This document shows, piece by piece, positions 1 through 51,684 of a DNA stretch of 64,000 nucleotides; positions within the stretch are counted from its first letter, which is position 1; each line of letters begins with the position of its first letter. The stretch covers positions 1 to 64,000 of the IMG/VR virus record IMGVR_UViG_3300035126_001036; one strand, written 5' to 3'. The stretch is from an uncultured virus (IMG/VR IMGVR_UViG_3300035126_001036) (lineage: Duplodnaviria > Heunggongvirae > Uroviricota > Caudoviricetes). Under the pieces are notes generated by a model. It did not search any database, was not told where the DNA came from, and saw nothing but the letters and a program-made list of their open reading frames with translations. Both the position numbers and the translations under genes were made by a program.

Positions 1-144
1 AGGGCACTACAGGAACTCAAGGTATATCTGGTATTGTTGGTTCTATTGGCCCACAAGGTATTCAAGGTATTCAGGGCACTACAGGAACTCAAGGTATATC
101 TGGTATTGTTGGTTCTATTGGCCCACAGGGTATTCAAGGTATTC
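1..144 (+). repeat. 72-bp tandem duplication encoding collagen-like repeat
   Basis: 1-72 and 73-144 are near-identical (agggcactacaggaactcaaggt...), followed by further ggtattcaa units. Confidence 0.9.
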
Positions 145-752
145 AAGGTATTCAAGGAGCGTCTGCTTTTTCAAATGCGACCGTAAATAATTTAAATGTC
201 ACGGGTATTTCTACATTAGGAATAGTCAGAATATCTTCAGGAGTTGTAACTGCCACTTCTGGTATTGTAACTTATTATGGAGATGGTTCAAATTTAACTG
301 GAATTACTGATGGTAATGTGGGTCTCGGCACCACTGGCACACCGCAGTTTGCAGGGTTGGGTCTGGGCACGGCTGCCGTAGCCGGGTGGGAGCTGACGGT
401 AGGGGGTGCCACCTGCCAGGTGCGGAATACGGTAACGGCGGCGAGCAATGTTTACTCGTTGGATGTGCAGGCTGCCAACGAGTTTGTTACTGCTGCAGCG
501 ATTGCAGCGGCAACTACGATTAACCTGTCGAATCTGACTACAATCCCGAGCGGGTATTTATGGCGCGGGGTGCTGAGTTTTCAGTATACATCCGGCACGA
601 TTTCATGGTTTACGGGAAATAGTGGTTACACGGTGAAATGGGACGGAGGTAGCGCAATGACACCAACAGAAAATGAAATAGAGACCGTGGTGATTACAGT
701 CGTTGGTGGTCAGACCACAATTGAAATTGCACCACTTAAGGGGAGGGTCTGA
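3..752 (+). CDS. 3' part of a tail fibre/virion structural protein with collagen-like (G-X-Y) repeats; 5' end lies outside the window
   Basis: Frame is open from nt 3 ([24 protein letters not shown]...) and continuous with track ORF 318..752. Contains GISTLG...[20 protein letters not shown], typical of cyanomyovirus tail proteins. Composition switches from AT-rich to GC-rich near 318. Confidence 0.75.
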
Positions 753-754
753 TC

Positions 755-1792
755 ATGCTGAGACGTAGTGCGTTGCTGGCAGCAACGAATAGTGGTGGAC
801 CGCCGGGGTTTGGGGTCAAGTACACGAATCCTGCAACTCTGCCTACGGGCACCGGCTTCGGTGTTGCATTTTCCCCTGCTGGTGATACTATTGCAGTGGC
901 TCATTTCATCTCCCTATTTATCACCGCCTATCCCTGGTCAGCATCTGGCTTCGGCACAAAGTACACGAATCCTGCAACGCTGCCTACGGGCGCTGGCTGG
1001 GACGTTGCATTTTCTCCGGCTGGTGATGCTATTGCAGTGGCGCATAACAGCTCTCCATTTATCACCGCCTATCCCTGGTCAGCATCTGGCTTCGGCACGA
1101 AGTACACCAATCCCGCGACGCTGCCTACGAGCACCGGCTTCGGCGTTGCATTTTCTCCGGCTGGTGATACTATTGCAGTGGCTCATGGCATCTCTCCATT
1201 TATCACCGCCTATCCCTGGTCAGCATCTGGCTTCGGTACGAAGTACACGAATCCTGCAACTCTGCCTACGGGCGACGGCCTCGGCGTTGCATTTTCTCCG
1301 GCTGGTGATACTATTGCAGTGGCTCTTAACAGCTCCCCATTTATTACCGCTTATCCCTGGTCAGCATCTGGCTTCGGCACAAAGTACACGAATCCTGCAA
1401 CTCTGCCTACGGGCACTGGCTGGGGCGTTGCATTTTCCCCTGCTGGTGATGCTATTGCAGTGGCTCATGATAGCTCCCCATTTATTACCGTCTATCCCTG
1501 GTCAGCATCTGGCTTCGGTACAAAGTACACCAATCCCGCGACGCTGCCTACGAGCACCGGCTTCGGTGTTGCATTTTCCCCTGCTGGTGATGCTATTGCA
1601 GTGGCTCATGGCAGCTCTCCATTTATCACCGCCTATCCCTGGTCAGCATCTGGCTTCGGCACGAAGTACACCAATCCCGCGACGCTGCCTACAGGTGACG
1701 GCGTTGGCGTTGCATTTTCTCCGGCTGGTGATACTATTGCAGTGGCTCATGGCAGCTCTCCATTTATTACCGCCTATCCCTGGAACTCCTAA
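755..1792 (+). CDS. 7-bladed beta-propeller (WD40/YVTN-like) repeat protein, probable receptor-binding/tail-associated
   Basis: 17-aa leader plus seven 47-aa repeats (last one 46 aa) of GFGTKYTNPATLPTGxGxGVAFSPAGDxIAVAHxxSPFITAYPWSAS. Directly downstream of the tail fibre gene. Confidence 0.75.
   Translation: MLRRSALLAATNSGGPPGFGVKYTNPATLPTGTGFGVAFSPAGDTIAVAHFISLFITAYPWSASGFGTKYTNPATLPTGAGWDVAFSPAGDAIAVAHNSSPFITAYPWSASGFGTKYTNPATLPTSTGFGVAFSPAGDTIAVAHGISPFITAYPWSASGFGTKYTNPATLPTGDGLGVAFSPAGDTIAVALNSSPFITAYPWSASGFGTKYTNPATLPTGTGWGVAFSPAGDAIAVAHDSSPFITVYPWSASGFGTKYTNPATLPTSTGFGVAFSPAGDAIAVAHGSSPFITAYPWSASGFGTKYTNPATLPTGDGVGVAFSPAGDTIAVAHGSSPFITAYPWNS
806..1789 (+). repeat. Seven 141-bp tandem repeats
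   Basis: Units start at 806, 947, 1088, 1229, 1370, 1511 and 1652; DNA is near-identical. Confidence 0.95.
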
Positions 1793-2058
1793 TGAACAAG
1801 CTCTCCATTCTAACCGCCGCCCTTGAAGGCCGCGATCACGAACTGCTCTCCTATCAAATCAACATCGACAACTACCGCCTGGCCATCGCCAAAATCAACG
1901 CCGACCACGCCGATAACGATGATTTGCTTTCATTCCGTGATGATCTGCAGGCTCGCCTTGACGAAGAACTCCACCAGCAGCTTCGCGCTCGCATCATCCG
2001 CGATGTGATCGCGGAGCAAATTGCCGAGCTGTCCACCCAGGAGGAACTCATCTCATGA
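1792..2058 (+). CDS. hypothetical protein (GC-rich tail cassette)
   Basis: 88 aa, overlaps both neighbours, GC-rich codon usage. Confidence 0.7.
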   Translation: MNKLSILTAALEGRDHELLSYQINIDNYRLAIAKINADHADNDDLLSFRDDLQARLDEELHQQLRARIIRDVIAEQIAELSTQEELIS

Positions 2059-2624
2059 ACTACGTCCACATCGCTGCAGACGGTCAGCCCGAGTACCCTT
2101 ACAACCTCTGGCAGCTCCGCAAAGCACACCCCAACATCTCATTCCCCACTGAACCCACCCCGGAAGACCTGGCGCCCTTCGACGTCTTTCCGGTCACCAT
2201 CAACCCTCAGCCCGATGGTTACGACCACCGCCTGCAGATCGTTGAGCAGATCCCGCCAACCATCACCGCTGATGGCTGGGTGATCAATTGGGCACTGCGC
2301 GACACCACCCCAGAGGAACAGGCCAGCTACGACGCTGCCCACACTCCCGAACCCCAGTGGATGGGTTTCGGTATCGAGCTGGCGGTTAACCCCGCCATCA
2401 CCGAACTGTACGACAGCATCCCCACCGCACTGGCCAATGGCCTGAGCATCGGCCTGTCTGAAGCCAGCAAGGGCGACACCCGCTTATTCATCGGTTTGTG
2501 GCAGCGAGTTTTAGCCACTGGTGGGGTTTCTCCCGAGCTACTGGGAGAAATCGGCGCTCTGGCCCATCAGTTCAACCTGCCGACCAGTTTCGTTGCTCAG
2601 ATGATGCCACCGAACAATGAATAA
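2055..2624 (+). CDS. putative tail fibre assembly/chaperone-like protein
   Basis: N-terminal YPYNLWQLRKAHPNISFP motif of the kind seen in tail-assembly proteins; position after the fibre and propeller genes. Function inferred. Confidence 0.5.
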   Translation: MNYVHIAADGQPEYPYNLWQLRKAHPNISFPTEPTPEDLAPFDVFPVTINPQPDGYDHRLQIVEQIPPTITADGWVINWALRDTTPEEQASYDAAHTPEPQWMGFGIELAVNPAITELYDSIPTALANGLSIGLSEASKGDTRLFIGLWQRVLATGGVSPELLGEIGALAHQFNLPTSFVAQMMPPNNE

Positions 2625-2662
2625 CCGCAGTGATCCGAAAAAATCTATCGGTTTACTAAACT

Positions 2663-2670
2663 TATAAATA
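2663..2670 (+). promoter_or_regulatory. T4-type late promoter TATAAATA
   Basis: Exact T4 late consensus about 20 nt upstream of ATG 2692. Confidence 0.7.
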
Positions 2671-2691
2671 AACAAAACTTATAATGTCCTC

Positions 2692-3672
2692 ATGAATTTC
2701 GTTAAATATGCATTGGAGAATGGTGGAACAATTAAACCTCTACTTATAAACCCAGAAGACCTTTCGGGACCATCAATCACAAATCCTTCTGTCTTCATTT
2801 ATCAGAACAGAATATTAGTCAATCTTCGTAATGTAAATTATACATTATATCACGCAGAACTCAATCGGTTTGAGCATATGTGGGGTCCATTATCCTACAT
2901 TCATCCAGAAAATGATATGCACCTGAGAACCACAAATTACATTGCAGAACTAGATGACAATATAGATACGGTTCACTATTCAAAAATAGATACTTCAGAC
3001 TTTGATACCTATCAACCACAGTGGGATTTTGTGGGCCTTGAAGATGTTCGGTTAGTAGAATGGAATGATAAACTCTATGGTATTGGTGTTCGCAGAGACT
3101 TAGACGACAAAGGAACCGGAAGAATGGAAATTAGTGAATTTCAGATTTCTGATTATTCGGTCAAAGAAGTTTTTCGTTATCGTATTCCTGGACCCTCCCC
3201 AGATAAAGAATACTGTATGAAAAACTGTACTCCAATTCTAGATAAACCTTTTCATTTATTAAAGTGGTCTAATCCCACTGCACTAATGAAATTTGATATT
3301 ACTGGAAAGGAAACAGAAGTCTTTCAAACTGACCCAAATCCTACTCTACAAACTGACCTAAGAGGTGGTTCTCAGGTAATTCCTTATAAAAACGGATACT
3401 TATCACTTCTTCACGAGACACATCTTTATAATTCAGAACAGGGAAGAAAAAACGCGACTTATCGCCATCGGTTTGTAATTTGGGATAAGGAATTTAAACT
3501 TCAAAAAGTATCAAAATTATTTTCGTTTATGAATATAAAAATTGAGTTTTGTTGTGGTCTTGTAGAATATAAAAATGATTACTTGATTACTTTTGGTGCT
3601 CAAGATAATGCTGCTTATATTTTAAAAGTTTCTAAATCATTTGTGGAGGATTTTATTCATGAACAAACTTGA
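2692..3672 (+). CDS. predicted glycosidase/phosphorylase-like five-bladed propeller (GH130/GH43 clan-like)
   Basis: Motifs NPSVF, GLEDVRL, KNCTP, LRGGSQ, YRHRF, IEFCCGL, ITFGAQD. Confidence 0.6.
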   Translation: MNFVKYALENGGTIKPLLINPEDLSGPSITNPSVFIYQNRILVNLRNVNYTLYHAELNRFEHMWGPLSYIHPENDMHLRTTNYIAELDDNIDTVHYSKIDTSDFDTYQPQWDFVGLEDVRLVEWNDKLYGIGVRRDLDDKGTGRMEISEFQISDYSVKEVFRYRIPGPSPDKEYCMKNCTPILDKPFHLLKWSNPTALMKFDITGKETEVFQTDPNPTLQTDLRGGSQVIPYKNGYLSLLHETHLYNSEQGRKNATYRHRFVIWDKEFKLQKVSKLFSFMNIKIEFCCGLVEYKNDYLITFGAQDNAAYILKVSKSFVEDFIHEQT

Positions 3673-5551
3673 AGGACTTCCAACTATTCATTACATTAGT
3701 TTAGAAGAAAGCCTAGACAGAAGAACTAATTTAGAAAATTGGTTTCAAAAATATAATATAACAAACTATGTTCCTCATTTATTCAAAAGATTTGAAAATT
3801 ATAATCATAATTTAATCGGAACAAATGTGCATCTTTTGGCGGAACATTCAAAAGGTCCGATTACTTCTCATTTATGTTTACTCAGGGAATTATACGAGAC
3901 TTATGATGATGAATATTTTTTGATTGTTGAAGACGATTTGTCTTTAGAAACTGTTGAACACTGGAACTTTACCTGGAAGCAATTCTATCAAAATCTTCCT
4001 AAAGATTGGAATGGTATTCAATTAACTATTGTAAGAGAATATAATGTTAAAGCGTATTCTTTTGAAGAAAGAAGAGATAAAGACTGGTGTGTTGCTGGGT
4101 ATTTAATAAAAAGAAACTATGCAAAATATCTCTTAGACTTATATTATTTTGATACTGATTTTAATCTAAACACTAGTTTTATTCCTGTAGTTGAGGACGT
4201 ATTATTTTTTCATACTAATCCAAACATATATTGTTTTCCTTTATTTGTTGAGGATTTTTATAATGCAAAATCAACTTACAGAAATCCAGAACTGGTAGAT
4301 GATTGTCATCATAAATCTTATCGTAATGTTTTAAATTGGTGGGAAAATAACGGTAAAAATTTAACTATTAATCAAATAATGAATACACAACTTAATCACA
4401 TTTATCAAGAACCTCAATTTGGAGAAAATTGGTTTTCATATCCAAATCTGTATAGGAAAATGATTGAAAAATTCCCATCAGGTTCCAAGTTTGTTGAAAT
4501 TGGTTCTTGGAAAGGAAAATCTTCCGCATTTATGGCAGTTGAAATTGCAAATTCCAATAAAAACATTGAGTTCTATTGTGTAGATACTTGGGAAGGAAGT
4601 GTAGAGCATCAAGATATAGACGATTTAAAATCTTTATATGACACATTTAACCAAAATATGATGCCTTTAAAAGGCTATCATATTCCTTTAAGAATGACTT
4701 CACTTGAAGCGGTAAAAACTTTTGAAGATAAGTCTTTAGATTTTGTTTTTATTGATGCTTCTCACGAATATGAAGACGTGAAAAAAGATATTATTTCTTG
4801 GTTGCCTAAGGTAAAACCAGGTGGAATTATTGCCGGACACGATTACTATCTTAATGGGACTGACTTTTTCCCTGGAGTAAAGCAAGCGGTTAATGAAACA
4901 CTAAAAATTGATGAATTAGAATTTTCTGAAGATTGTTGGATGTATAAAGTAAAATCTATATCTAATGAATTAATAGAATATTCATTAGATACTGAAAATG
5001 CGGAAAAAAATTATAATCTCGCAAAGTGGTATGAAAGTCAGGGTCATACTGCACCAGCACATATCTATTACTTGAGAGCAGCAGAAAGAAGTGAAGATAA
5101 TCTTTTGGCATACTCCGCATTAATTCGTGGGTCATTCTGCTATGGGGCACAAAAATCAAGAGATTCTAGTGAAAAAGTATTACTAGAAAATGCTCTTGTG
5201 TTGCTACCCAAAAGACCCGAAGCATATTATTTTCTTTCGTTGATATATGAAAGAAAACAAGAATGGCAACATTCTTACATTTATGCAACACTAGGTCTAA
5301 ATTGCTATGAAAATAACGATGAATGCATAAACATTAATATTCCAGAATATTCCGGGAAACATTTGCTTATTTTTCAAAAGGCAATTTCTTCTTGGTGGTG
5401 GGGAAAAGGAGATGAAAGTAGAGGACTTTTAGAATTATTATGCGATAATTATTGGAATGTTTTAGATGTGAAACATAAATCTTTAGTCGAAGAAAACGCA
5501 AAAAAAGTTGGAGCAAAATTTGAAAAAAGACTGCATTTCAACTTTCAGTAA
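3659..5551 (+). CDS. multidomain glycosyltransferase family 25-like + class I SAM methyltransferase (Methyltransf_24-like) + TPR protein
   Basis: N-term YISLEESLDRR...SHL...IVEDD (GT25-like); central VEIGSWKGKS...FIDASHEYEDV...GGIIAGHDY; C-terminal TPR-like helices (PKRPEAYYFLS). Start taken at ATG 3659. Confidence 0.75.
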   Translation: MNKLEGLPTIHYISLEESLDRRTNLENWFQKYNITNYVPHLFKRFENYNHNLIGTNVHLLAEHSKGPITSHLCLLRELYETYDDEYFLIVEDDLSLETVEHWNFTWKQFYQNLPKDWNGIQLTIVREYNVKAYSFEERRDKDWCVAGYLIKRNYAKYLLDLYYFDTDFNLNTSFIPVVEDVLFFHTNPNIYCFPLFVEDFYNAKSTYRNPELVDDCHHKSYRNVLNWWENNGKNLTINQIMNTQLNHIYQEPQFGENWFSYPNLYRKMIEKFPSGSKFVEIGSWKGKSSAFMAVEIANSNKNIEFYCVDTWEGSVEHQDIDDLKSLYDTFNQNMMPLKGYHIPLRMTSLEAVKTFEDKSLDFVFIDASHEYEDVKKDIISWLPKVKPGGIIAGHDYYLNGTDFFPGVKQAVNETLKIDELEFSEDCWMYKVKSISNELIEYSLDTENAEKNYNLAKWYESQGHTAPAHIYYLRAAERSEDNLLAYSALIRGSFCYGAQKSRDSSEKVLLENALVLLPKRPEAYYFLSLIYERKQEWQHSYIYATLGLNCYENNDECININIPEYSGKHLLIFQKAISSWWWGKGDESRGLLELLCDNYWNVLDVKHKSLVEENAKKVGAKFEKRLHFNFQ

Positions 5552-5733
5552 ATCAAAATAATTCGTATTATGCAAATTCTACTTCTTTAAATTTTGTTCC
5601 AAGGACGGACGGAAGCCCAATTAAACAAAATTGGTTAAGAAGAATTATATACTGGCCTAAACGTTTACCAAATGAACAACTCCAGGCATTAACCAGGTGG
5701 ACACTTTATAAATCGTCCACTAACTTAACATAA
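5524..5733 (+). pseudogene. start-less relic of a tail/LamG-type protein C-terminus
   Basis: Frame reads ...NWLRRIIYWPKRLPNEQLQALT, resembling tail-protein C-termini. In-frame TGA at 5521 and no start codon. Confidence 0.45.
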
Positions 5734-5754
5734 AGTCCAATAATCGTCTATTAT
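5697..5754 (+). promoter_or_regulatory. palindromic-box promoter (box + -10)
   Basis: GTGGACA-N10-CGTCCAC then TATTAT 28 nt later. Confidence 0.7.
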
Positions 5755-5777
5755 TCTGCTATTCACCAAATTTTGTA

Positions 5778-7010
5778 ATGACCTCTATTATTCTTCGTCC
5801 TCATCAGGCGACGGCTCTTTCTTCTATGGGAGAAAACGATCTTGGTAAAATTATTCTTCCGACTGGTGCAGGTAAAAGTATTGTTTTTATCAAAAACACC
5901 ATAGAGCAATTTAAATCTGATATTCCCCAGACTGTTTGCGTTGTTGCCCCAAGGATTCTCCTCGCGGTTCAACTTTCTGCTGATTACGAAAAGCACGTTA
6001 ATAATGCGAAATATATGCATGTGCATTCTGGTAGTCGGCTAAGAAACTACCGCACTACCAATATAAAAGATATTCAAGAGTGGCATAATATCCATAAAGA
6101 TGATCATAAACTTATTTTTACTTCTTATAATTCCCTGAAGAAAATCACCGAGTCAAATATTAAGGTGAACACCTACAATTTTGATGAATGTCACAATTCT
6201 ACTAAGAAGTCCTTCTTTCCACACATTGAAGATGCAGTAAGGGAAGCAGACAAGAAGTACTTTTTTACTGCCACTCCTAAGAACTCTGCAATTCCAACAA
6301 AAAAACCCGGAATGAATATTGCCGAGGTTTATGGTCATGATATTTGTAAGATTCCTATGACCGAGATGGTATATGGTGGTTATGTTTTGCCTCCATTGGT
6401 GGTTAAGAAGGAAGTGAATATTGAAGAAAGTATGGATGAAATGAATAATAATCTGATTCTAAAAACCTTGGACGAGGATACTCCCAAGAAGGTTCTTATT
6501 TCTGCGAAATCAACAAAATCAATTATTTCTCTTCTTACTGAGACCGATTTTGTCTCTCAGATGAAGGACAGAGATTATAGTATTATGCATATAACTGCGG
6601 CTCACGGGGCATATATTGATGGTAAAGAGGTAAAGCGAGATGTGTTTTTTAGAACTTTGGATGAGTGGGGAAATGACGATTCTAAGAAGTTTGTTCTTCT
6701 TAACTACTCGATTCTTTCTGAAGGGATCAATGTCAATTCGTTGGATGCCGTGATCTTTATGAGAAATATGGATGCAATTGCCATGTTGCAAACCATTGGA
6801 CGTGTGATCCGTCTTCATAAAGAAGATGCAGATCACATTGCTTCTGGTGAATTGCGGGTCGGGGATTATAAAAATTACAAGAAGCCTTATGGTATGGTAG
6901 TACTTCCTCACGGTGATTCCAAATCGAAATCAATTGCTTCCGATATTGAAAATTTAATTTATCGGTCATTTGTTGCAGGCGAAGTAGTTTCTCAGGAAAT
7001 TGTAAAGTAG
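5778..7010 (+). CDS. superfamily 2 DEAD/DEAH helicase (ResIII-like)
   Basis: LRPHQ Q-motif, PTGAGKS, DECH, TAT, LSEGIN, QTIGRVIR. Confidence 0.9.
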   Translation: MTSIILRPHQATALSSMGENDLGKIILPTGAGKSIVFIKNTIEQFKSDIPQTVCVVAPRILLAVQLSADYEKHVNNAKYMHVHSGSRLRNYRTTNIKDIQEWHNIHKDDHKLIFTSYNSLKKITESNIKVNTYNFDECHNSTKKSFFPHIEDAVREADKKYFFTATPKNSAIPTKKPGMNIAEVYGHDICKIPMTEMVYGGYVLPPLVVKKEVNIEESMDEMNNNLILKTLDEDTPKKVLISAKSTKSIISLLTETDFVSQMKDRDYSIMHITAAHGAYIDGKEVKRDVFFRTLDEWGNDDSKKFVLLNYSILSEGINVNSLDAVIFMRNMDAIAMLQTIGRVIRLHKEDADHIASGELRVGDYKNYKKPYGMVVLPHGDSKSKSIASDIENLIYRSFVAGEVVSQEIVK

Positions 7011-12556: not shown

Positions 12557-13523
12557 TTGAACCAGCAGCAAAAATTTATTTATGAGACCATCGCACAAAT
12601 TGAAGACATTCTTTATGATGCGGAATACGATCTCGGATCTGATTCAGTCATCTATAAAAAAACCAAAGATCTTCTTTCTTTCGTAGAAAATTATCAAGAA
12701 GAAAACGAATGAGATTCACAGTTGTTTACAAAATTCCAAAACATAAAAAAGAACAGAAAGCCACCTTTCTGAATATTGAAGATTCCTTCAAATGGGAAAA
12801 TCATGTAAAAGAAAACCTTAAAGCCTACGATCTAAAAATTATTCCATCTTAGGAGAATTTGTTTATGCTACCCACTTTTGTAGAGTCCGAAATTCGCATT
12901 GTTGATGTTGACATTATTCTTGAAGAAGACGGGTACTATTCTGTAGTCACCTATTCTGATGGGAAATTTGATGAGTTTGGCCCTTATGATTCTTATCAAG
13001 AGGCCGAATCGGCTGTTTACTAAATACAACTAACCCACAAAAAGGAGGGAACACCATGGAAACTCAGGTCATTGAGAAAAAGCAAGATTGGGAATATCTT
13101 GAGTACCTTAATAGGGACGTAGAGGAAGAAGAAAATGAAGAGCCTTGCTATCCAGAATTTGATGACTGGGCACGGTGACAATTGAAGAACTGTCCACTAA
13201 TGGATAAAAAAGCAAAAATGCCTGTTAGGATCAAGAGGTCTAGAGAGAAGCTATCATCTTCTCTGATTGACGAACTTCTAGAGACTGATATTTTTCAGTC
13301 ATCTGTCAAGGAAGAATTATCTTTAGAAGTAAAACAACTTCTAAAGGACTTTTAATTTATTATATTTGGAGTTATTTTTATGAACGCACAAGAAGCAATG
13401 GCGATTATTCGCTCTGGCAAAAACGGCAGTCAAATTCTAGATCTTCTAGATAAGATTGTTTCTCTTTCCGATGTTGAAGAAACATCGTCAGAGGTTTCTG
13501 AAGAGATTGTGTTTGCCGACTGA
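12557..13523 (+). CDS. run of very short ORFs below the track cut-off (e.g. 12557-12712, 12709-12852, 12865-13023, 13057-13178, 13380-13523)
   Basis: Read manually; RBS-like GGAGG/AGGAG/GGAG upstream of several; lie between palindromic boxes at 12474, 13174 and 13519. Confidence 0.55.
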
Positions 13524-13599
13524 CACTTTTTAAACTGTCCACCGTATGCCCATTCTATTCGTAGGATGGGCTATTATTTTGGAAGTTCACTAAAGACTT

Positions 13600-14070
13600 A
13601 TGACTTCTAAATCTCAACTGCAAACCAAAATTCAAGAACTGGAAGAAGAAATTTCTTCTTTTAAACAACAACTGAATAACTACAAAGAGACACCAACCAT
13701 CGAAACCGCCAAAGTTGGTGATGTTCTAGAAGACGGTTGTATTGTACTCAAAAAAGAAAATGGTCTCGCTCTTTTGGTGGCCCCAGAATCAACCGAGGTT
13801 TATGTTACTTGGAGTAAAGAGTTTTCAACAGTATTCAAGAAACTAGAAGAACAAGGATTTAATCCTTCTCAGTTCTTTATTCCAACCATGGATCAACTTA
13901 ATCTTGCCTATAAGACCATTCCTCAACACTTCGCCAGCACCGGCTATTGGTCTTCTATAGAGTTCACTGCTACTCTCGCTTGCGGCGTGTTCTTTAATGT
14001 TGGCAGTGCGTACCGCGGCACTAAGACGCTTACGTGCTGCGTGCGTGCCTTCCGGTGTGTTACTTATTGA
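13600..14070 (+). CDS. small coiled-coil + CLec/DUF1566-like protein, candidate DGR target (copy 1)
   Basis: C-terminus YWSS.E...A..V.F..G......K.....VRAFR matches the C-type-lectin-fold signature of DGR variable proteins; paralog at 50952. Confidence 0.75.
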   Translation: MTSKSQLQTKIQELEEEISSFKQQLNNYKETPTIETAKVGDVLEDGCIVLKKENGLALLVAPESTEVYVTWSKEFSTVFKKLEEQGFNPSQFFIPTMDQLNLAYKTIPQHFASTGYWSSIEFTATLACGVFFNVGSAYRGTKTLTCCVRAFRCVTY

Positions 14071-14259
14071 ACCTTGAATTTTGATACTTGATACTTAAGC
14101 AAAGTTATGAAATCATATTCAGCCCACTCGGACACCGAATTCTACGAGACAGACAATTTAAAAGAGGCAATTGAAGTTGCCCAGTCCATGGCCGAACATT
14201 TCGGCTCATCATACGTCATAAACAACCAAACTAACGAAATTATTGAGAGGTTTTAAAAA

Positions 14260-22060: not shown

Positions 22061-22654
22061 ATGTATGTAACTTTAAGGGAGGCAAGAAAACAACTAGGAC
22101 TTCATCCAAATACCCTTAGAAAGTATGCCGATGAGGGGATTATTGAAACAATAAAAACTCCATCTGGACAACGAAGATTCAATGTTGAATCTTTTATAAA
22201 ACAAAAACAAAATAGTTTACAAACAATTCTTTACTGCAGAGTTTCAAGTGCTAGACAAAAAGACGACCTCCAAAATCAAAAAAATTATCTCATCTCAAAG
22301 TACCCAGGAGCAGAGGTTATTATTGATGTCGGCTCTGGACTCAATTTTAAACGAAGAGGTTTGCGTTCCATTTTGGAACGATTATTGCAGGGAGATTCAA
22401 TCCAACTTGTGGTTGCCCAGCGTGACCGACTTTGCAGATTCGGATTTGACCTCATTGAATATCTCGTCGTTAAAAACGGTGGAGAAATCGTGGTTCTCGA
22501 TCAAATCGAGCACAGTCCAGAAGGAGAACTTGTATCCGACATCCTTTCTATCATCCATGTTTTCTCTTGTAGAATACATGGGATGCGAAAGTATAAAAAT
22601 CAAATCAAAGAAGATAAGGATTTACCCAAACCAAACTCAAAGACAAATCCTTAG
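22061..22654 (+). CDS. tnpA: IS607 serine recombinase/transposase
   Basis: MerR-like HTH (LGLHPNTLRKY...TPSGQRRF), YCRVSS catalytic motif, DVGSGLNFKR, DRLCRFG. Confidence 0.95.
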   Translation: MYVTLREARKQLGLHPNTLRKYADEGIIETIKTPSGQRRFNVESFIKQKQNSLQTILYCRVSSARQKDDLQNQKNYLISKYPGAEVIIDVGSGLNFKRRGLRSILERLLQGDSIQLVVAQRDRLCRFGFDLIEYLVVKNGGEIVVLDQIEHSPEGELVSDILSIIHVFSCRIHGMRKYKNQIKEDKDLPKPNSKTNP

Positions 22655-23735
22655 ACAATGGTTTGGTGCATCAAGATACACTTATAATGAAACCGTTAAG
22701 TTTTTAAAAGAACCAGATACTAAGGCATCTTGGAAATCAATAAAAACTGGTTTGATTCATTCTTTACCCGATTGGGCGGAAGAAATTCCTTATCAAATTA
22801 AATCTGTTGCCGTAAGAGATTGCTGTAAGGCAGTTTCTATGTGTAAACGAAAAAATAGAGGAATTCCACCAGAAGATTGGCATGAAGTTAAATTTAGAAG
22901 CAGACGTGAACCAAAACAAACAATTTACGTTCCTAAGACTTCTATATCTAAAAATGGTGTTTATCACACTATTTTAGGGAAATTAAAAATGAGTGAAATG
23001 CTTCCCGACAACATTATGGATTCAAGATTAACATTAGATAATGGTAGATACTTTTTAATAATTCCTTACGAAGAAAAAACAATTCCATGTGAGAACCAAG
23101 CAAGAGTTGTTTCTTTAGATCCAGGAGTTAGAATATTCCAGACATTTTATAACCCAGAATTTTCCGGGGCTATTGGTGATGGCGACATTGGTAGAATAAC
23201 CAGATTATGTTATCATCTTGATTCTCTAATCTCAAAACGAGATAAGTCTAAGTCTAGAAAAAAATATAGACTCAATAAGGCTATCAAACGAATGAGAAAT
23301 AAAATCAAAGATTTGGTCGATGAAATTCATCATAAGACTGCAAGGTTTTTGGTTGATAATTTTGATATTATTCTTCTTCCTTCATTTGATGTAAGTCAAA
23401 TGGTTAAAAAGGGTAAGAGAAAAATCAACTCTAAAACGACCAGATCTATGTTGACATGGGCTCATTATAGATTTAAGTGTTTTCTTAAAGACAAATGTGA
23501 AGAATTTAATAAGGTTCTTCTTATTGTTAATGAGGCCTATACATCAAAAACAGTGTCTTGGAATGGAAAAATTAATTACTCTTTAGGTGGATCTAAAGTT
23601 GTTAAAGACAAAAACCATTGTGTCCCTAGAGATATTAATGGAGCCCGAAATATTTGGGTAAAAAGCGTCTCAAGAATTCTTGAGGCTTTGGGAGATAGCC
23701 CCTCAAGTAGCAATACTTGTGCATTGTTAACGTAA
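22578..23735 (+). CDS. tnpB: IS607 TnpB RNA-guided nuclease with Fanzor-like rearranged RuvC
   Basis: KIRIYP HTH; RuvC-I LDPG; canonical RuvC-II Glu replaced (IILLPSF) with a Glu in VNEAYTSKT; RuvC-III RDINGARNI. Start uncertain: frame is open back to 22248. Confidence 0.85.
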   Translation: MGCESIKIKSKKIRIYPNQTQRQILRQWFGASRYTYNETVKFLKEPDTKASWKSIKTGLIHSLPDWAEEIPYQIKSVAVRDCCKAVSMCKRKNRGIPPEDWHEVKFRSRREPKQTIYVPKTSISKNGVYHTILGKLKMSEMLPDNIMDSRLTLDNGRYFLIIPYEEKTIPCENQARVVSLDPGVRIFQTFYNPEFSGAIGDGDIGRITRLCYHLDSLISKRDKSKSRKKYRLNKAIKRMRNKIKDLVDEIHHKTARFLVDNFDIILLPSFDVSQMVKKGKRKINSKTTRSMLTWAHYRFKCFLKDKCEEFNKVLLIVNEAYTSKTVSWNGKINYSLGGSKVVKDKNHCVPRDINGARNIWVKSVSRILEALGDSPSSSNTCALLT

Positions 23736-33256: not shown

Positions 33257-34456
33257 CTATTGATTTTCTAGACGCTTCAACGCAGACGCTAAATGATGTT
33301 GGACACCATTTAGACTTACTTCCGCTCCACGTCCGTAATCGACATACTCTGCCGATGTTAATTCTTGACCCGAAAGGTCTAACCACCCTTTTTTAAGGAT
33401 GTTGATAGAGGCATTTAAGTCTCTATCGCGATGAGAGCCACAAGAAGGACAAGTCCATTCACGAACACTTAAAGGCATCTTGTCTTCTTTATGTCCACAG
33501 TTAGAACAGGTCTTGGAACTAGGGTAAAATCTATCTATTTTGGTCAAAGTTTTTCCGTACCAATTACACTTGTATTCCAACATAGAAACAAAAGTAGACC
33601 AAGAGGCATCACTAATGGATTTTGCAAGTTTGTGGTTCTTTAACATTCCAGAAACATTTAAGTCTTCAACAACAATCAAATCAAATGTCTTAACAAGTTC
33701 TGTTGAAATATTATGCAAGAAATAATTTCTTGAGTTAGTAATGTTTTCGTGTACTTTAGCAACTTTAATACGTTGTCTATTATAACGATTACTACCTTTT
33801 TGTTTACGACTTAAATGTTTCTGTGCTTTTTTAAGTTTAGATTGGTTCTTTCTAAACCATCTTGGGTTATTGATGACTTGACCATTTGATAAAGTCATTA
33901 GTTCTTTTAAACCCAAATCAATACCTACTACTTTACCAGTAGAGGGTATTGGATTGAGTTCTTGTTGGACTAAAATTGAAACAAAATACTTTCCGGTTGG
34001 AGTTTTAGAAACAGTAATGCTTCTAAAATCGGCTTCTTCAGGGATATTTCGGTCCAGAACAATTTTGACCCAACCAATTTTTTCGATCCTTATTGAACAT
34101 TTTTCTTGATCAAGTTTAAATCTAGTTTTTTCTGGAAGCCTAAATGATTGTCTATTGGTCTTTTTCTTGAATTTCGGCTTTCCAAGTTTAACCTTCCTTT
34201 TTTTGTTAAAGTATTGTTTCTTAAACTCAACAAAATCCATTCTTTTTTGTTGAAGTGTTGATGCCGATACTTCTTTAAGGAACTCAAACTCCTCTTGGTC
34301 TTTTAGTGTTTTTTCATTTACTATGGTACCATCATTATTGTTGAAGTTTTCAACTAGTTTGTTCCACACAAACCTACAGCAACCAAAAGTTTTGGCAAGC
34401 AAAATTTCTTGTTCTTTTGTAGGATAAATCCTATACTTATATGCCTTTAATTGCAT
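33257..34456 (-). CDS. tnpB: IS200/IS605-family TnpB (solo, IS1341-like)
   Basis: KAYKYRIYPT HTH, GIDLG, IVVEDL, CSNCG/CPSCG zinc ribbon, RDLNA; no adjacent tnpA. The only substantial minus-strand gene. Confidence 0.92.
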   Translation of the reverse strand: MQLKAYKYRIYPTKEQEILLAKTFGCCRFVWNKLVENFNNNDGTIVNEKTLKDQEEFEFLKEVSASTLQQKRMDFVEFKKQYFNKKRKVKLGKPKFKKKTNRQSFRLPEKTRFKLDQEKCSIRIEKIGWVKIVLDRNIPEEADFRSITVSKTPTGKYFVSILVQQELNPIPSTGKVVGIDLGLKELMTLSNGQVINNPRWFRKNQSKLKKAQKHLSRKQKGSNRYNRQRIKVAKVHENITNSRNYFLHNISTELVKTFDLIVVEDLNVSGMLKNHKLAKSISDASWSTFVSMLEYKCNWYGKTLTKIDRFYPSSKTCSNCGHKEDKMPLSVREWTCPSCGSHRDRDLNASINILKKGWLDLSGQELTSAEYVDYGRGAEVSLNGVQHHLASALKRLENQ

Positions 34457-49474: not shown

Positions 49475-50461
49475 ATGACTGACCCTATCCACATTGCACT
49501 AGACCGACTACATGACTATGCAGTTGGCCATCCTAATCATGACACTGATGAGATAGTGGAAGCCGCCATCGAGCCGGAGGGGCCGAGCTACAGGGATGTC
49601 TTGGCTCTCCGCGACGAATTGGATGCCGATGGCTACGGGACAGTCGATCTAGTCGCTTTCGCCCATGCCGTCCTAGCCCGCTACGGCCGCCCCACCATCG
49701 AGCCGGTGCCTGATACGAAAGCGCATGAATTGCTGAACCTGTTACTCGATGATCTTGATGCTCTGGTTGACAGCTCTGAAGGGGTCGCGGGACTACACCT
49801 AAATGGAGATGTTGCGAGTTGGGAATCGCTGCGCGAAGGGGGTAGATTTGAGACTTGGCTTATGCGCATGGACGAGGCTAGAGCTTTTCTTGATTCAACC
49901 ATGGATGAGCCTGATGACATTGCCACCACCATCGAGCCGGTGCCCGAGCCGGAGGGGAATGGGCTGTTTCATTGGCGGAACCTTGGCGACGGAAAGCCCG
50001 TTCAAGTTCGGGAGTGCCCTATGTGCGGTATCGCCCCGGCAAACGTGGACGATTGCGGTCGATTCGGTGATCCAGCCTGCCCCTATTTCGGTGTTGGCGA
50101 ACCCGAGCCGGAGGGGGTGACGGATGAGGAGTGGGACGCGATAAAAGATCGCATGTGGCGGCATTACGAAACTACTGGCTATCAAGGCGAACGGTTTATC
50201 TATCAAGGCGATTTCGATACAGCGCTTGATGTTGCCCGCCAAGAACTCGCCCGTTTCGCCCGCCCCACCATCAAGCCGGTGCCCGTCGCTGAGCGGCCAT
50301 GGGAGCGCGAGGGGTGGTGTGATAAATGCGGGATGTGTTGGAGATTTGATCCGTGTGACCGTGGATGGTGGTCTTACGGCCCCATCCTTCCTTCTGATGG
50401 CGACCCAGCCCCCTTCACCTACCTGCTCCCCCACCACGCCCTGCCGGTGCCCGGTGCCTGA
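49475..50461 (+). CDS. GC-rich mosaic protein with repeated (P/T)TIEPVP linkers, DUF551-like C-terminus
   Basis: GC rises after about 49550; ccaccatc(g/a)agccggtgcc occurs three times; bounded by boxes at 49391 and 50491. Confidence 0.7.
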   Translation: MTDPIHIALDRLHDYAVGHPNHDTDEIVEAAIEPEGPSYRDVLALRDELDADGYGTVDLVAFAHAVLARYGRPTIEPVPDTKAHELLNLLLDDLDALVDSSEGVAGLHLNGDVASWESLREGGRFETWLMRMDEARAFLDSTMDEPDDIATTIEPVPEPEGNGLFHWRNLGDGKPVQVRECPMCGIAPANVDDCGRFGDPACPYFGVGEPEPEGVTDEEWDAIKDRMWRHYETTGYQGERFIYQGDFDTALDVARQELARFARPTIKPVPVAERPWEREGWCDKCGMCWRFDPCDRGWWSYGPILPSDGDPAPFTYLLPHHALPVPGA

Positions 50462-50951
50462 GGGGAGGTGATGGCACGACCTTAGCCGAGAATGACACTT
50501 TAAGAACTGTCCACTTCTGACAAAATTCTAGAAATCCCTAGATACAATAAGATCAAATCAATTCAGGTTTCCAATGTCCCGCACCCATCGCCAAACTTCT
50601 TACAATAAATGTGCTCTTAGGAGCCCCAAAACCCTGAACGAAAAACGTCAAATTGATTCTTTTCTCACCGATGATGAAACTGTGGAGTTTCAGATTTCTG
50701 GTATGAATAGGATCAAAAATCGCCGGTCCATTCCCACACATCACGACGACAATGTTTGTTCTTCTTATTATGAGACTGATTATGACCACCACTGAAAAAA
50801 CTGCGTATTCTAAGTCTATGTTAGCAGATGCTGAAGATTTTCTCTGGAAAAACTTTGGTATCTCTGTAGGAACCCCCGATTATGAATGGCCTCAAGATCA
50901 AATCATCTCAGAGGCTGTAAAACGCGGCTGGAAATTTAGTTTTTATTGATT

Positions 50952-51422
50952 ATGACAACCAAAACACAACTTCAAACCAAAATTCAAGAACTGGAAGAAG
51001 AACTTTCTTCTTTTAAACAACAATTGAATAACTATAAAAACCATCCAACTATTCAAGAGGCATCTGTAGGTGACGTTCTTGAGGATGGCTGTATCGTCCT
51101 TAAAAAAGAAAATGGTCTCGCTCTTCTTGTAGCACCAAACTCAACCGAGGTTTATGCTACTTGGAGTAAAGAATTCCCTGAAGTCTTCAAGAAACTAGAA
51201 GAACGAGGATTTAATCCTTCTCAGTTCTTTATTCCAACCATAAATCAACTTAATCTTGCCTATAAGACCATTCCTCAACACTTCGCCAGCACCGACTATT
51301 GGTCTTCTACAGAGATTACTGCTACCATCGCTTGCTGCCAGGGCTTTAGCGGTGGTAACATCTTCAGCTTCATTGAGACGATCATGAACCGCGTGCGTGC
51401 CTTCCGGTGTGTTACTTATTGA
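50952..51422 (+). CDS. small coiled-coil + CLec/DUF1566-like protein, candidate DGR target (copy 2)
   Basis: Paralog of 13600-14070; ends YWSSTEITATIACCQGFSGGNIFSFIETIMNRVRAFRCVTY. Confidence 0.75.
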   Translation: MTTKTQLQTKIQELEEELSSFKQQLNNYKNHPTIQEASVGDVLEDGCIVLKKENGLALLVAPNSTEVYATWSKEFPEVFKKLEERGFNPSQFFIPTINQLNLAYKTIPQHFASTDYWSSTEITATIACCQGFSGGNIFSFIETIMNRVRAFRCVTY

Positions 51423-51684
51423 ACCTTGACACTTGAGGAACTGTCCATACTTCTGCCCGCACCACAAATGCGGGTTTTATAATATTTACAGTTAATCCAA
51501 ATTCAATGGACACCTTCGGATTTTATGATGCATCAAATTGGCCCCAAGATCCTAAACAAAACTCGGCTTGGAATGCCTATGCAAGGTCCACCACTCGGCG
51601 GTATCTTTCACCCGGAATCGCCCCTGAATGTTTTGTTGTAAGGCATCGTGGCTATAAGGGATACTACGTTTTTGGTAAATAAAC

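Follow-up and report, generated by a model that had tools for sequence, protein, structure and literature searches.

The closest described systems are the DGR of phage BPP-1, the dispersed DGR targets of Treponema denticola, the chromosomal DGRs of cyanobacteria and the PeSL/PmSL cassettes of T4-type phages (published sources are cited here from excerpts). The BPP-1 DGR (mtd-avd-TR-brt) has a CLec target with a C-terminal VR, adenine-specific variation and a GC-rich constant 3' segment. In T. denticola, remote targets occur and 'leftover' targets are found in isolates lacking RT and TR; VRs match the template of another strain, two template types are present in one genome, and the core has been lost repeatedly (PMC4891356). 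Chromosomal DGRs of cyanobacteria carry the CLec domain on a different N-terminal module and have dispersed, probably cytosolic paralogues, with the RT in the same chromosome; they occur in filamentous and other non-pico taxa, and Synechococcus and Prochlorococcus reportedly have no DGR (PMC7517822). Phage targets that do not adjoin the RT, at distances of up to 50 kb, have already been described (PMC5758913), and DGR surveys, which key on an RT beside a TR-VR pair, miss remote targets (PMC8144416). PeSL/PmSL cassettes are repeated promoters, some with a stem-loop between an upstream box and the -10 (PMC4122927; PMC2839356), and they cluster in the hyperplastic early region and are over-represented at strain breakpoints (PMC4122927).

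The locus studied here lies in the first 64 kb (the window) of a 138,809-nt virus record (G000) that is 56% complete and has T4-like gene content. It has the features listed above for BPP-1, and the gene order of related cassettes is the same. Unlike BPP-1, this genome contains no Avd, TR or RT, the targets stand among early rather than tail genes, the VR in this clade is followed by a 7-mer repeat tail and not by a GC-rich inverted repeat, and the carrier is a T4-like phage, presumed lytic. The T. denticola features recur as well (dispersed targets, VRs matching another strain's template, two template types in one genome, repeated core loss), but here a phage carries the targets, the proteins are small and lack a membrane anchor, and contact with a donor could be renewed through co-infection. 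The likeness to cyanobacterial chromosomal DGRs covers the different N-terminal module, the dispersed paralogues and the probably cytosolic product, whereas the donors here are phage cassettes. We consider it slightly better than even (probability about 0.55) that these genes are orphan DGR targets in a T4-like phage of freshwater Synechococcus-type hosts, fed by cassette-bearing relatives, with VRs that are mostly static and recombining.

A complete relative (G001; 249,820 nt, direct terminal repeats, 100% complete) was 98.1% identical to G000 across 79.6% of G000 and was therefore taken as a closed proxy for the species. Its gp23 (major capsid protein) is 88% identical to those of Synechococcus phages B3 and B23 and it encodes an SLH-OprB porin, which together point to a freshwater picocyanobacterial (Synechococcus-like) host. 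G009 (243 kb), also complete, is a further relative; it lacks an RT and carries two distant copies of the gene in addition to three close ones. The third lectin-core gene of G000 is located at 129309–130130, and in G001 that spot is occupied by a GC-rich Lcl_C gene (L028:516-1172) with no 7-mer tail and a tip that does not appear AAY-diversified. Elsewhere in the window, two ORFs (22248–23735, + strand; 33257–34456, - strand) match PHROG 506 'transposase' and are possibly TnpB-like, and the tail-island edge (677–1822 and 1–150) contains seven GC-rich 141-nt tandem repeats plus collagen-like repeats. The coordinates of the target loci are collected in Table 1.

Table 1. Features of the two target loci, given in window positions.
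Feature	Position	Strand	Remark
Box, hairpin and -10 hexamer directly upstream of target 1	13522..13577	+	
Target 1, paralogue of target 2	13600..14070	+	VR of template type A (V130, ACG-type 137)
Target 1 tail, nearly full set of 7-mers	14071..14096	+	26 nt common to the third copy
Upstream box and -10 hexamer	50494..50548	+	Probable promoter of the unit with two small ORFs and target 2
Target 2 ORF, 156 aa	50952..51422	+	N-terminal helix and C-type-lectin (Lcl_C-like) domain, C-terminal VR
Target 2 N-terminal helix, residues 4–27	50961..51032	+	Predicted structure; putative coiled coil
Target 2 CLec domain, residues 33–154	51048..51413	+	Structure match
Target 2 VR, codons 113–147	51288..51392	+	11 hypervariable AAY-type codons; template type B (Q130, ATC-type 137)
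Target 2 constant GC-rich 3' segment through the stop	51391..51422	+	IMH-like
Target 2 post-stop tail, truncated	51423..51436	+	2 of 4 imperfect 7-mers; second unit overlaps the box
Putative promoter element for the next genes	51427..51483	+	Palindromic box, spacer hairpin (51455–51475), TATAAT (51478–51483)

Targets 1 and 2 were 77.6% identical and 37,352 nt apart, in agreement with the initial annotation, which had placed a second target copy 37 kb from the first. The identical 3' end running past the stop codon that it described was found to be exactly 39 nt long (51391–51429; 32 nt to the end of the stop and 7 nt beyond), and the 138,809-nt record contained two exact copies of it and one with 3 mismatches (65760). 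A third target copy at record positions 65637–65791, 1.6 kb past the window, has a large internal deletion and a frameshift; over G000:C1:65637-65817 it also shows a further 12-nt loss in the VR and has kept the full tail. The deletion recurs in G002 and in one contig from run X8; in G001, the third locus is intact and of the opposite template type. Between targets 1 and 2, the VR had 32 differences in 117 nt, with 25 of the 32 at codon positions 1–2; in the N-terminal 336 nt this held for 20 of 50 differences (Fisher p = 0.001), and the variable segment proposed at the start is therefore real. The unit holding target 2 also contains two small ORFs (50574–50795 and 50782–50949).

The homologue search returned 711 protein clusters, and the best 120 of the 711 were analysed together with the two window copies (122 rows). 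Pairwise identity was 82% over residues 1–111 and 14% at 11 sites within the last 45 residues, each with an entropy of at least 2.5 bits, so that the site-specific hypervariability on which the candidacy of target 2 had been made to depend was present in the VR. The five residues out of reach of an AAY codon by adenine changes (K, E, Q, M and W) accounted for 2 of 1,326 residues at the 11 hypervariable sites vs 630 of 1,463 at 12 variable N-terminal sites. At single-adenine codons, the variants were reachable ones in 39 of 43 cases at site 143 and in 73 of 77 at site 122, and site 143 was T, A, P or S in 117 of 121 rows. The 122 rows included 120 distinct VRs. When alleles were placed on the nearest templates, 22 of the 25 differences between two type-A alleles fell on adenines of the L053 template and 3 on its 75 non-A positions (p = 2e-9); for type B, 17 of 24 polymorphisms fell on L046 adenines (p = 7e-5). 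Given this residue spectrum and the enrichment at adenines of near-cognate templates, the candidate put forward from the letters of the window is a genuine DGR-type target, and its VR was written by adenine-templated mutagenesis. Divergence of the tip by ordinary positive selection and cassette exchange, with no retroelement, would fit the evident recombination and a genome without RT. It is refuted in substance by the exclusion of K/E/Q/M/W at the 11 sites, the single-A codon spectra and the enrichment at template adenines, and we give it almost no weight.

The machinery was sought in the phage itself. Neither PF00078 nor the clade-specific RT and Avd queries matched in G000 or in the complete G001, no TR was found in G000, and DNA searches of G001 with the VR returned the three targets only. 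The combination of RT, Avd and TR in one replicon that makes up a complete (cis) DGR was found in neither genome. Judged from a single complete genome, this phage species carries targets at three loci and lacks a cassette; from the dispersed multi-target DGR that had been suggested, the dispersed copies are retained and a DGR encoded in the genome is not. An ordinary cis DGR with several targets, its cassette being polymorphic in the species and placed in the unassembled 44% of G000 or in sister strains, is improbable. It draws on the 56% completeness of G000, on the variability of the tail island, which is the site of the cassette in relatives, and on the known non-adjacent phage targets (PMC5758913). 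However, the complete, 98%-identical G001 has no cassette, the one tail-island flank covered (window 1–6000) is without RT or Avd, both VR types cannot come from one template, and the VR of target 2 was constant in three of four runs.

Searches were extended to other replicons. A template motif scan of viral contigs gave 0 matches, and the conserved 18-mer gave 7 in viral contigs (4 own VRs and 3 unrelated sequences, no template). In 185,579 species genomes, the 18-mer had 16 matches, none of which was a template and none in oxygenic cyanobacteria. The 401 Cyanobacteriota genomes (locus L093 aside) contained no template, the only match being a 26-nt piece of the variable part in one genome. 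The cultured-phage collection yielded no family member (1 weak match) and no RT above 38% identity. A host chromosomal DGR serving the phage targets in trans, for which the remote CLec targets known in cyanobacterial DGRs could be cited (PMC7517822), is very unlikely: the host is Synechococcus-like by the gp23 match, a group described as DGR-free in the excerpted part of the same source, and the searched genomes were without a template. Since the nearest templates are also phage-borne, this donor was rejected. As a separate observation, three CLec tips of DGR-like appearance lie dispersed in one Bdellovibrionales genome and resemble each other at the 3' end (L067, L072, L076).

Scanning metagenome contigs with a 21-mer of template type gave 9 stretches, which led to related, non-cognate cassettes (L046/L047 and L051). 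The same scan also found an unrelated complete bacterial DGR with a pilin-like target (L048:289-2969), in which both TR and VR read through an in-frame stop near the 3' end. An RT search, together with the scan for template-type motifs, recovered intact target(s)-Avd-TR-RT cassettes beside tail-fibre genes of related phages, namely in L046/L047, L051, L053–L058, L106, L115 and L116; some have two adjacent targets, and L106/L107 has a further target about 7 kb off. In six cognate TR-VR pairs (L057 was excluded because its TR and VR differ in length), 17–28 changes were counted at 41–47 adenines and 0–1 at 70–76 other bases. The cassette RTs formed a distinct group of 57 clusters at ≥60% identity, the next matches being at ≤44%. 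Target 2 differed from the L046 template at 20 of 41 adenines and 13 of 76 other bases, and target 1 from the L053 template at 26 of 42 adenines and 10 of 75 other bases. None of the 10 related TRs was exactly cognate, the best leaving 10–15 non-A mismatches in about 76, and the donor is therefore placed at clade level only. It is in the tail islands of related cyanomyoviruses, within target-Avd-TR-RT cassettes, that the nearest templates are located. Two template types were distinguished by linked residues, V130 occurring with A/T/S/V137 in 15 of 122 rows and Q130 with I/V/F/L137 in 101 of 122, and both types were present in G000 and in G001.

Cassette decay or loss recurs among related phages. 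In L059, the template and most of the RT are deleted, the Avd N-terminus is joined in frame to the final 60 RT residues (L059:5809-6183), and two orphan targets are left. RT remnants were found in G423 and G424, and Avd fragments in L102/L104. Among 20 selected fragments with the CLec family, 7 had a full RT, 2 a remnant and 11 no RT, a split that is not a rate because 4 of the 20 had been found through their RT. An RT and a coiled-coil-type copy were not found together on any record; all RT records checked were fragments (8–62% complete). Comparison by eye of the RT clusters with long target-bearing contigs gave no match, a very weak result based on cluster representatives and the best 120 of 711 targets.

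The constant 32-nt end is common to cassette targets, and related TRs share its start and then diverge. By comparison of these sequences, the constant 3' segment may have an IMH-like role, with a divergent IMH* in the TRs (the role of the IMH is taken from PMC5758913). Beyond the stop codon, the conserved tail consists of four imperfect 7-mers and was present in all seven intact-cassette targets examined. It is nearly complete at targets 1 and 3 (26 nt shared) and reduced to two units at target 2, where the box overlaps and truncates the true tail. It was absent from four relatives with decayed-looking VRs (L044a/b, L050, L036), with the exception that a distant copy (L035) has the tail yet a decayed VR. 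This distribution suggests that the tail may have a role in homing. The hairpin downstream of the IMH-like segment at target 2 is not counted as the GC-rich inverted repeat of DGRs, since it belongs to the 49-copy promoter element; such a repeat occurs in only 34% of DGRs and is not a required feature (PMC5758913).

The tail bears on direct retrohoming in trans, in which the Avd-RT-TR RNA complex of a co-infecting cyanophage would write cDNA into the targets, different donors giving types A and B. Targets 1 and 3 have kept the homing end and the 7-mer tail without any cassette, the tail-less relatives have decayed-looking VRs, the two template types are strictly linked and both within one genome, and the AAY residue spectrum is very clean. 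In the laboratory, a plasmid donor retargets lytically replicating BPP-1 (PMC3240598). On the other hand, no template-like loose ends were among those listed in contigs of four runs, the target 2 VR was the same in three of four runs, the tail-bearing L035 has a decayed VR, the tail of target 2 is truncated, and recombination accounts for the same allele patterns. We regard direct retrohoming as possible but doubtful. The broader proposal of a population-level phage-to-phage DGR, in which cyanomyoviruses without machinery would keep homing-competent early genes that are rewritten in trans and accept at least two templates, is held just as tentatively. If it is true, hypermutation would be a shared good, exploited by some phages without paying for it.

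The palindromic box reported after target 2 was present, although it starts at 51427–51428 and not at 51425, and the hairpin described after it was confirmed (7 pairs, -6.8 kcal/mol, z -4.9). The box had 49 copies on the + strand, all at 5.7–80 kb, against 0 in one shuffled genome. A TATAAT-like hexamer stood at an offset of 49–52 from the box in 47 of the 49 (permissive hexamer rule), and 13 of the 49 spacers folded (z ≤ -2), including one directly upstream of target 1. This fixed spacing suggests that box, hairpin and hexamer form a phage-wide early-promoter element, and the box is probably the binding site of a dimeric activator of early transcription. A sigma70 scan missed the box promoter because it has no -35 hexamer. 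Given the 49 copies and the hexamer at fixed offset, the most fitting interpretation of the element behind target 2 is a promoter that serves the following unit; the element at target 1 lies upstream of the gene and is therefore likewise taken as a promoter and not as a post-VR hairpin. The box and hairpin were rejected as a homing signal or cruciform, having 49 copies and being absent after targets 1 and 3 and the examined cassette targets. Hence, from the suggestion that the post-stop bases are a cis homing signal, their homology to the tail of cassette targets holds and the assignment of the box and hairpin does not.

In the early region, 14 of 48 breakpoints between G000 and G001 fell inside box-to--10 spans, which comprise 5.6% of the bases (p = 2e-7; breakpoints are paired and favour intergenic DNA). 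One strain breakpoint lies just upstream of the 50494 box (50426–50441), and there is none downstream of target 2 for 5 kb. The GC-rich 328-aa ORF at 49475–50461, which has internal repeats and no family match, varies between strains right up to the same box. Movement of box-bounded cassettes had been put forward for the targets. Boxes do occur at strain breakpoints (14/48), whereas target 2 occupies an unchanged locus in the three genomes that were compared and has not visibly moved. The elements resemble PeSL/PmSL cassettes as putative repeated promoters with a stem-loop in the hyperplastic region and in their association with breakpoints. They differ in having, as upstream element, a palindromic box some 50 nt ahead of the -10 in place of a sigma70 -35 or Mot box, and in that a clear stem-loop is present in only 13 of 49. 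In the excerpted text of PMC4503421, PeSLs are named as an unlikely mechanism in S-PM2.

Alleles were compared across lake runs in contigs, which drop rare variants, and the reading of stasis rests on these contigs. The target 2 VR was identical to that of the window in three of four runs; in the fourth, one form differed from it at 3 positions and another, which may be a paralogue, at 17. No template-like loose ends were among those listed in contigs of the four runs containing the phage. A protein matching target 2 at both ends was found in 14 contigs. Loci 1 and 2 of G001 share 8 of the 11 hypervariable residues (14% expected; p = 2e-5), template types are swapped between loci 1 and 3 when G000 is compared with G001, and one homologue (P0002) joins a target-1 N-terminus to a target-2 VR. 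Alleles common to loci and types swapped across strains point to gene conversion or recombination between loci, and the sharing of alleles between loci could also stem from assembly chimeras across the conserved middle.

In the family at large, VR identity was at chance level in 17 of 20 homologue pairs with ≥97% N-terminal identity (clustering of homologues at 90% favours pairs with near-identical N-termini and divergent VRs). The VR scaffold was perfect in 79 of 122 homologues, and two proteins of this species (P0243 and P0246) had changes at template-A codons absent from the other alleles listed. Together with the number of distinct VRs (120), the scaffolds and the homologue pairs indicate recent rewriting somewhere in the population, not visibly in this lineage; for the wider family, they suggest frequent recent rewriting rather than stasis.

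According to the preferred reading of orphan targets fed by relatives, a CLec domain with its 3' homing tail would have been taken from a tail-island cassette to the early region, where it gained a short coiled coil and came under early promoters. New alleles would be made in cassette-bearing relatives with two template types and then be inherited or imported. In this lineage, the VRs would be mostly static, and homologous recombination through the conserved flanks would exchange them among loci and strains. Of the copies, target 2 is the poorest candidate for a live retrohoming recipient, its tail being cut by the promoter box.

The structure of target 2 was predicted with a pLDDT of 87, and the model displays the VR on a CLec fold, as in DGR targets. 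It aligned to the C-terminal domain of Legionella Lcl (8q4e; PF07603) over 104 residues (Z 10.1, rmsd 3.1), which was also the best Foldseek match (E 2.8e-3); weaker structural matches were to the DGR proteins TvpA (Z 4.8), TaqVP (3.5) and Mtd (3.3). Unlike Lcl, target 2 itself has no PF07603 match in Pfam; cassette targets of related phages match PF07603 weakly. The tail-cassette targets are homologous to the target genes over the whole CLec domain, with different N-termini, in whose place target 2 has its N-terminal helix. No transmembrane or hydrophobic segment was found in target 2, and a weak search found no longer or fused forms of the protein. The gene position and the lack of a hydrophobic segment argue for an early, soluble role, and during infection the product probably acts in soluble form, as a variable protein that binds a ligand of the host or of a rival phage, and not as a tail tip.

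In the open-access literature, searched by titles and the starts of abstracts, no description was found of DGRs in T4-like cyanophages or of natural phage-to-phage action in trans, and the excerpts of PMC7824862, PMC10743442 and PMC11661182 contain nothing on either subject. Some of these phage cassettes may be listed in the DGR tables of PMC8144416. The target family of 711 protein clusters would be invisible to DGR surveys, since these need an RT beside a TR-VR pair. The case adds a clade of 57 RT clusters in freshwater cyanomyoviruses and DGR targets redeployed from tail to early genes, and it poses the testable question of retrohoming between co-infecting phage genomes in nature. A phage without a retroelement of its own appears to live on variation generated by its relatives.
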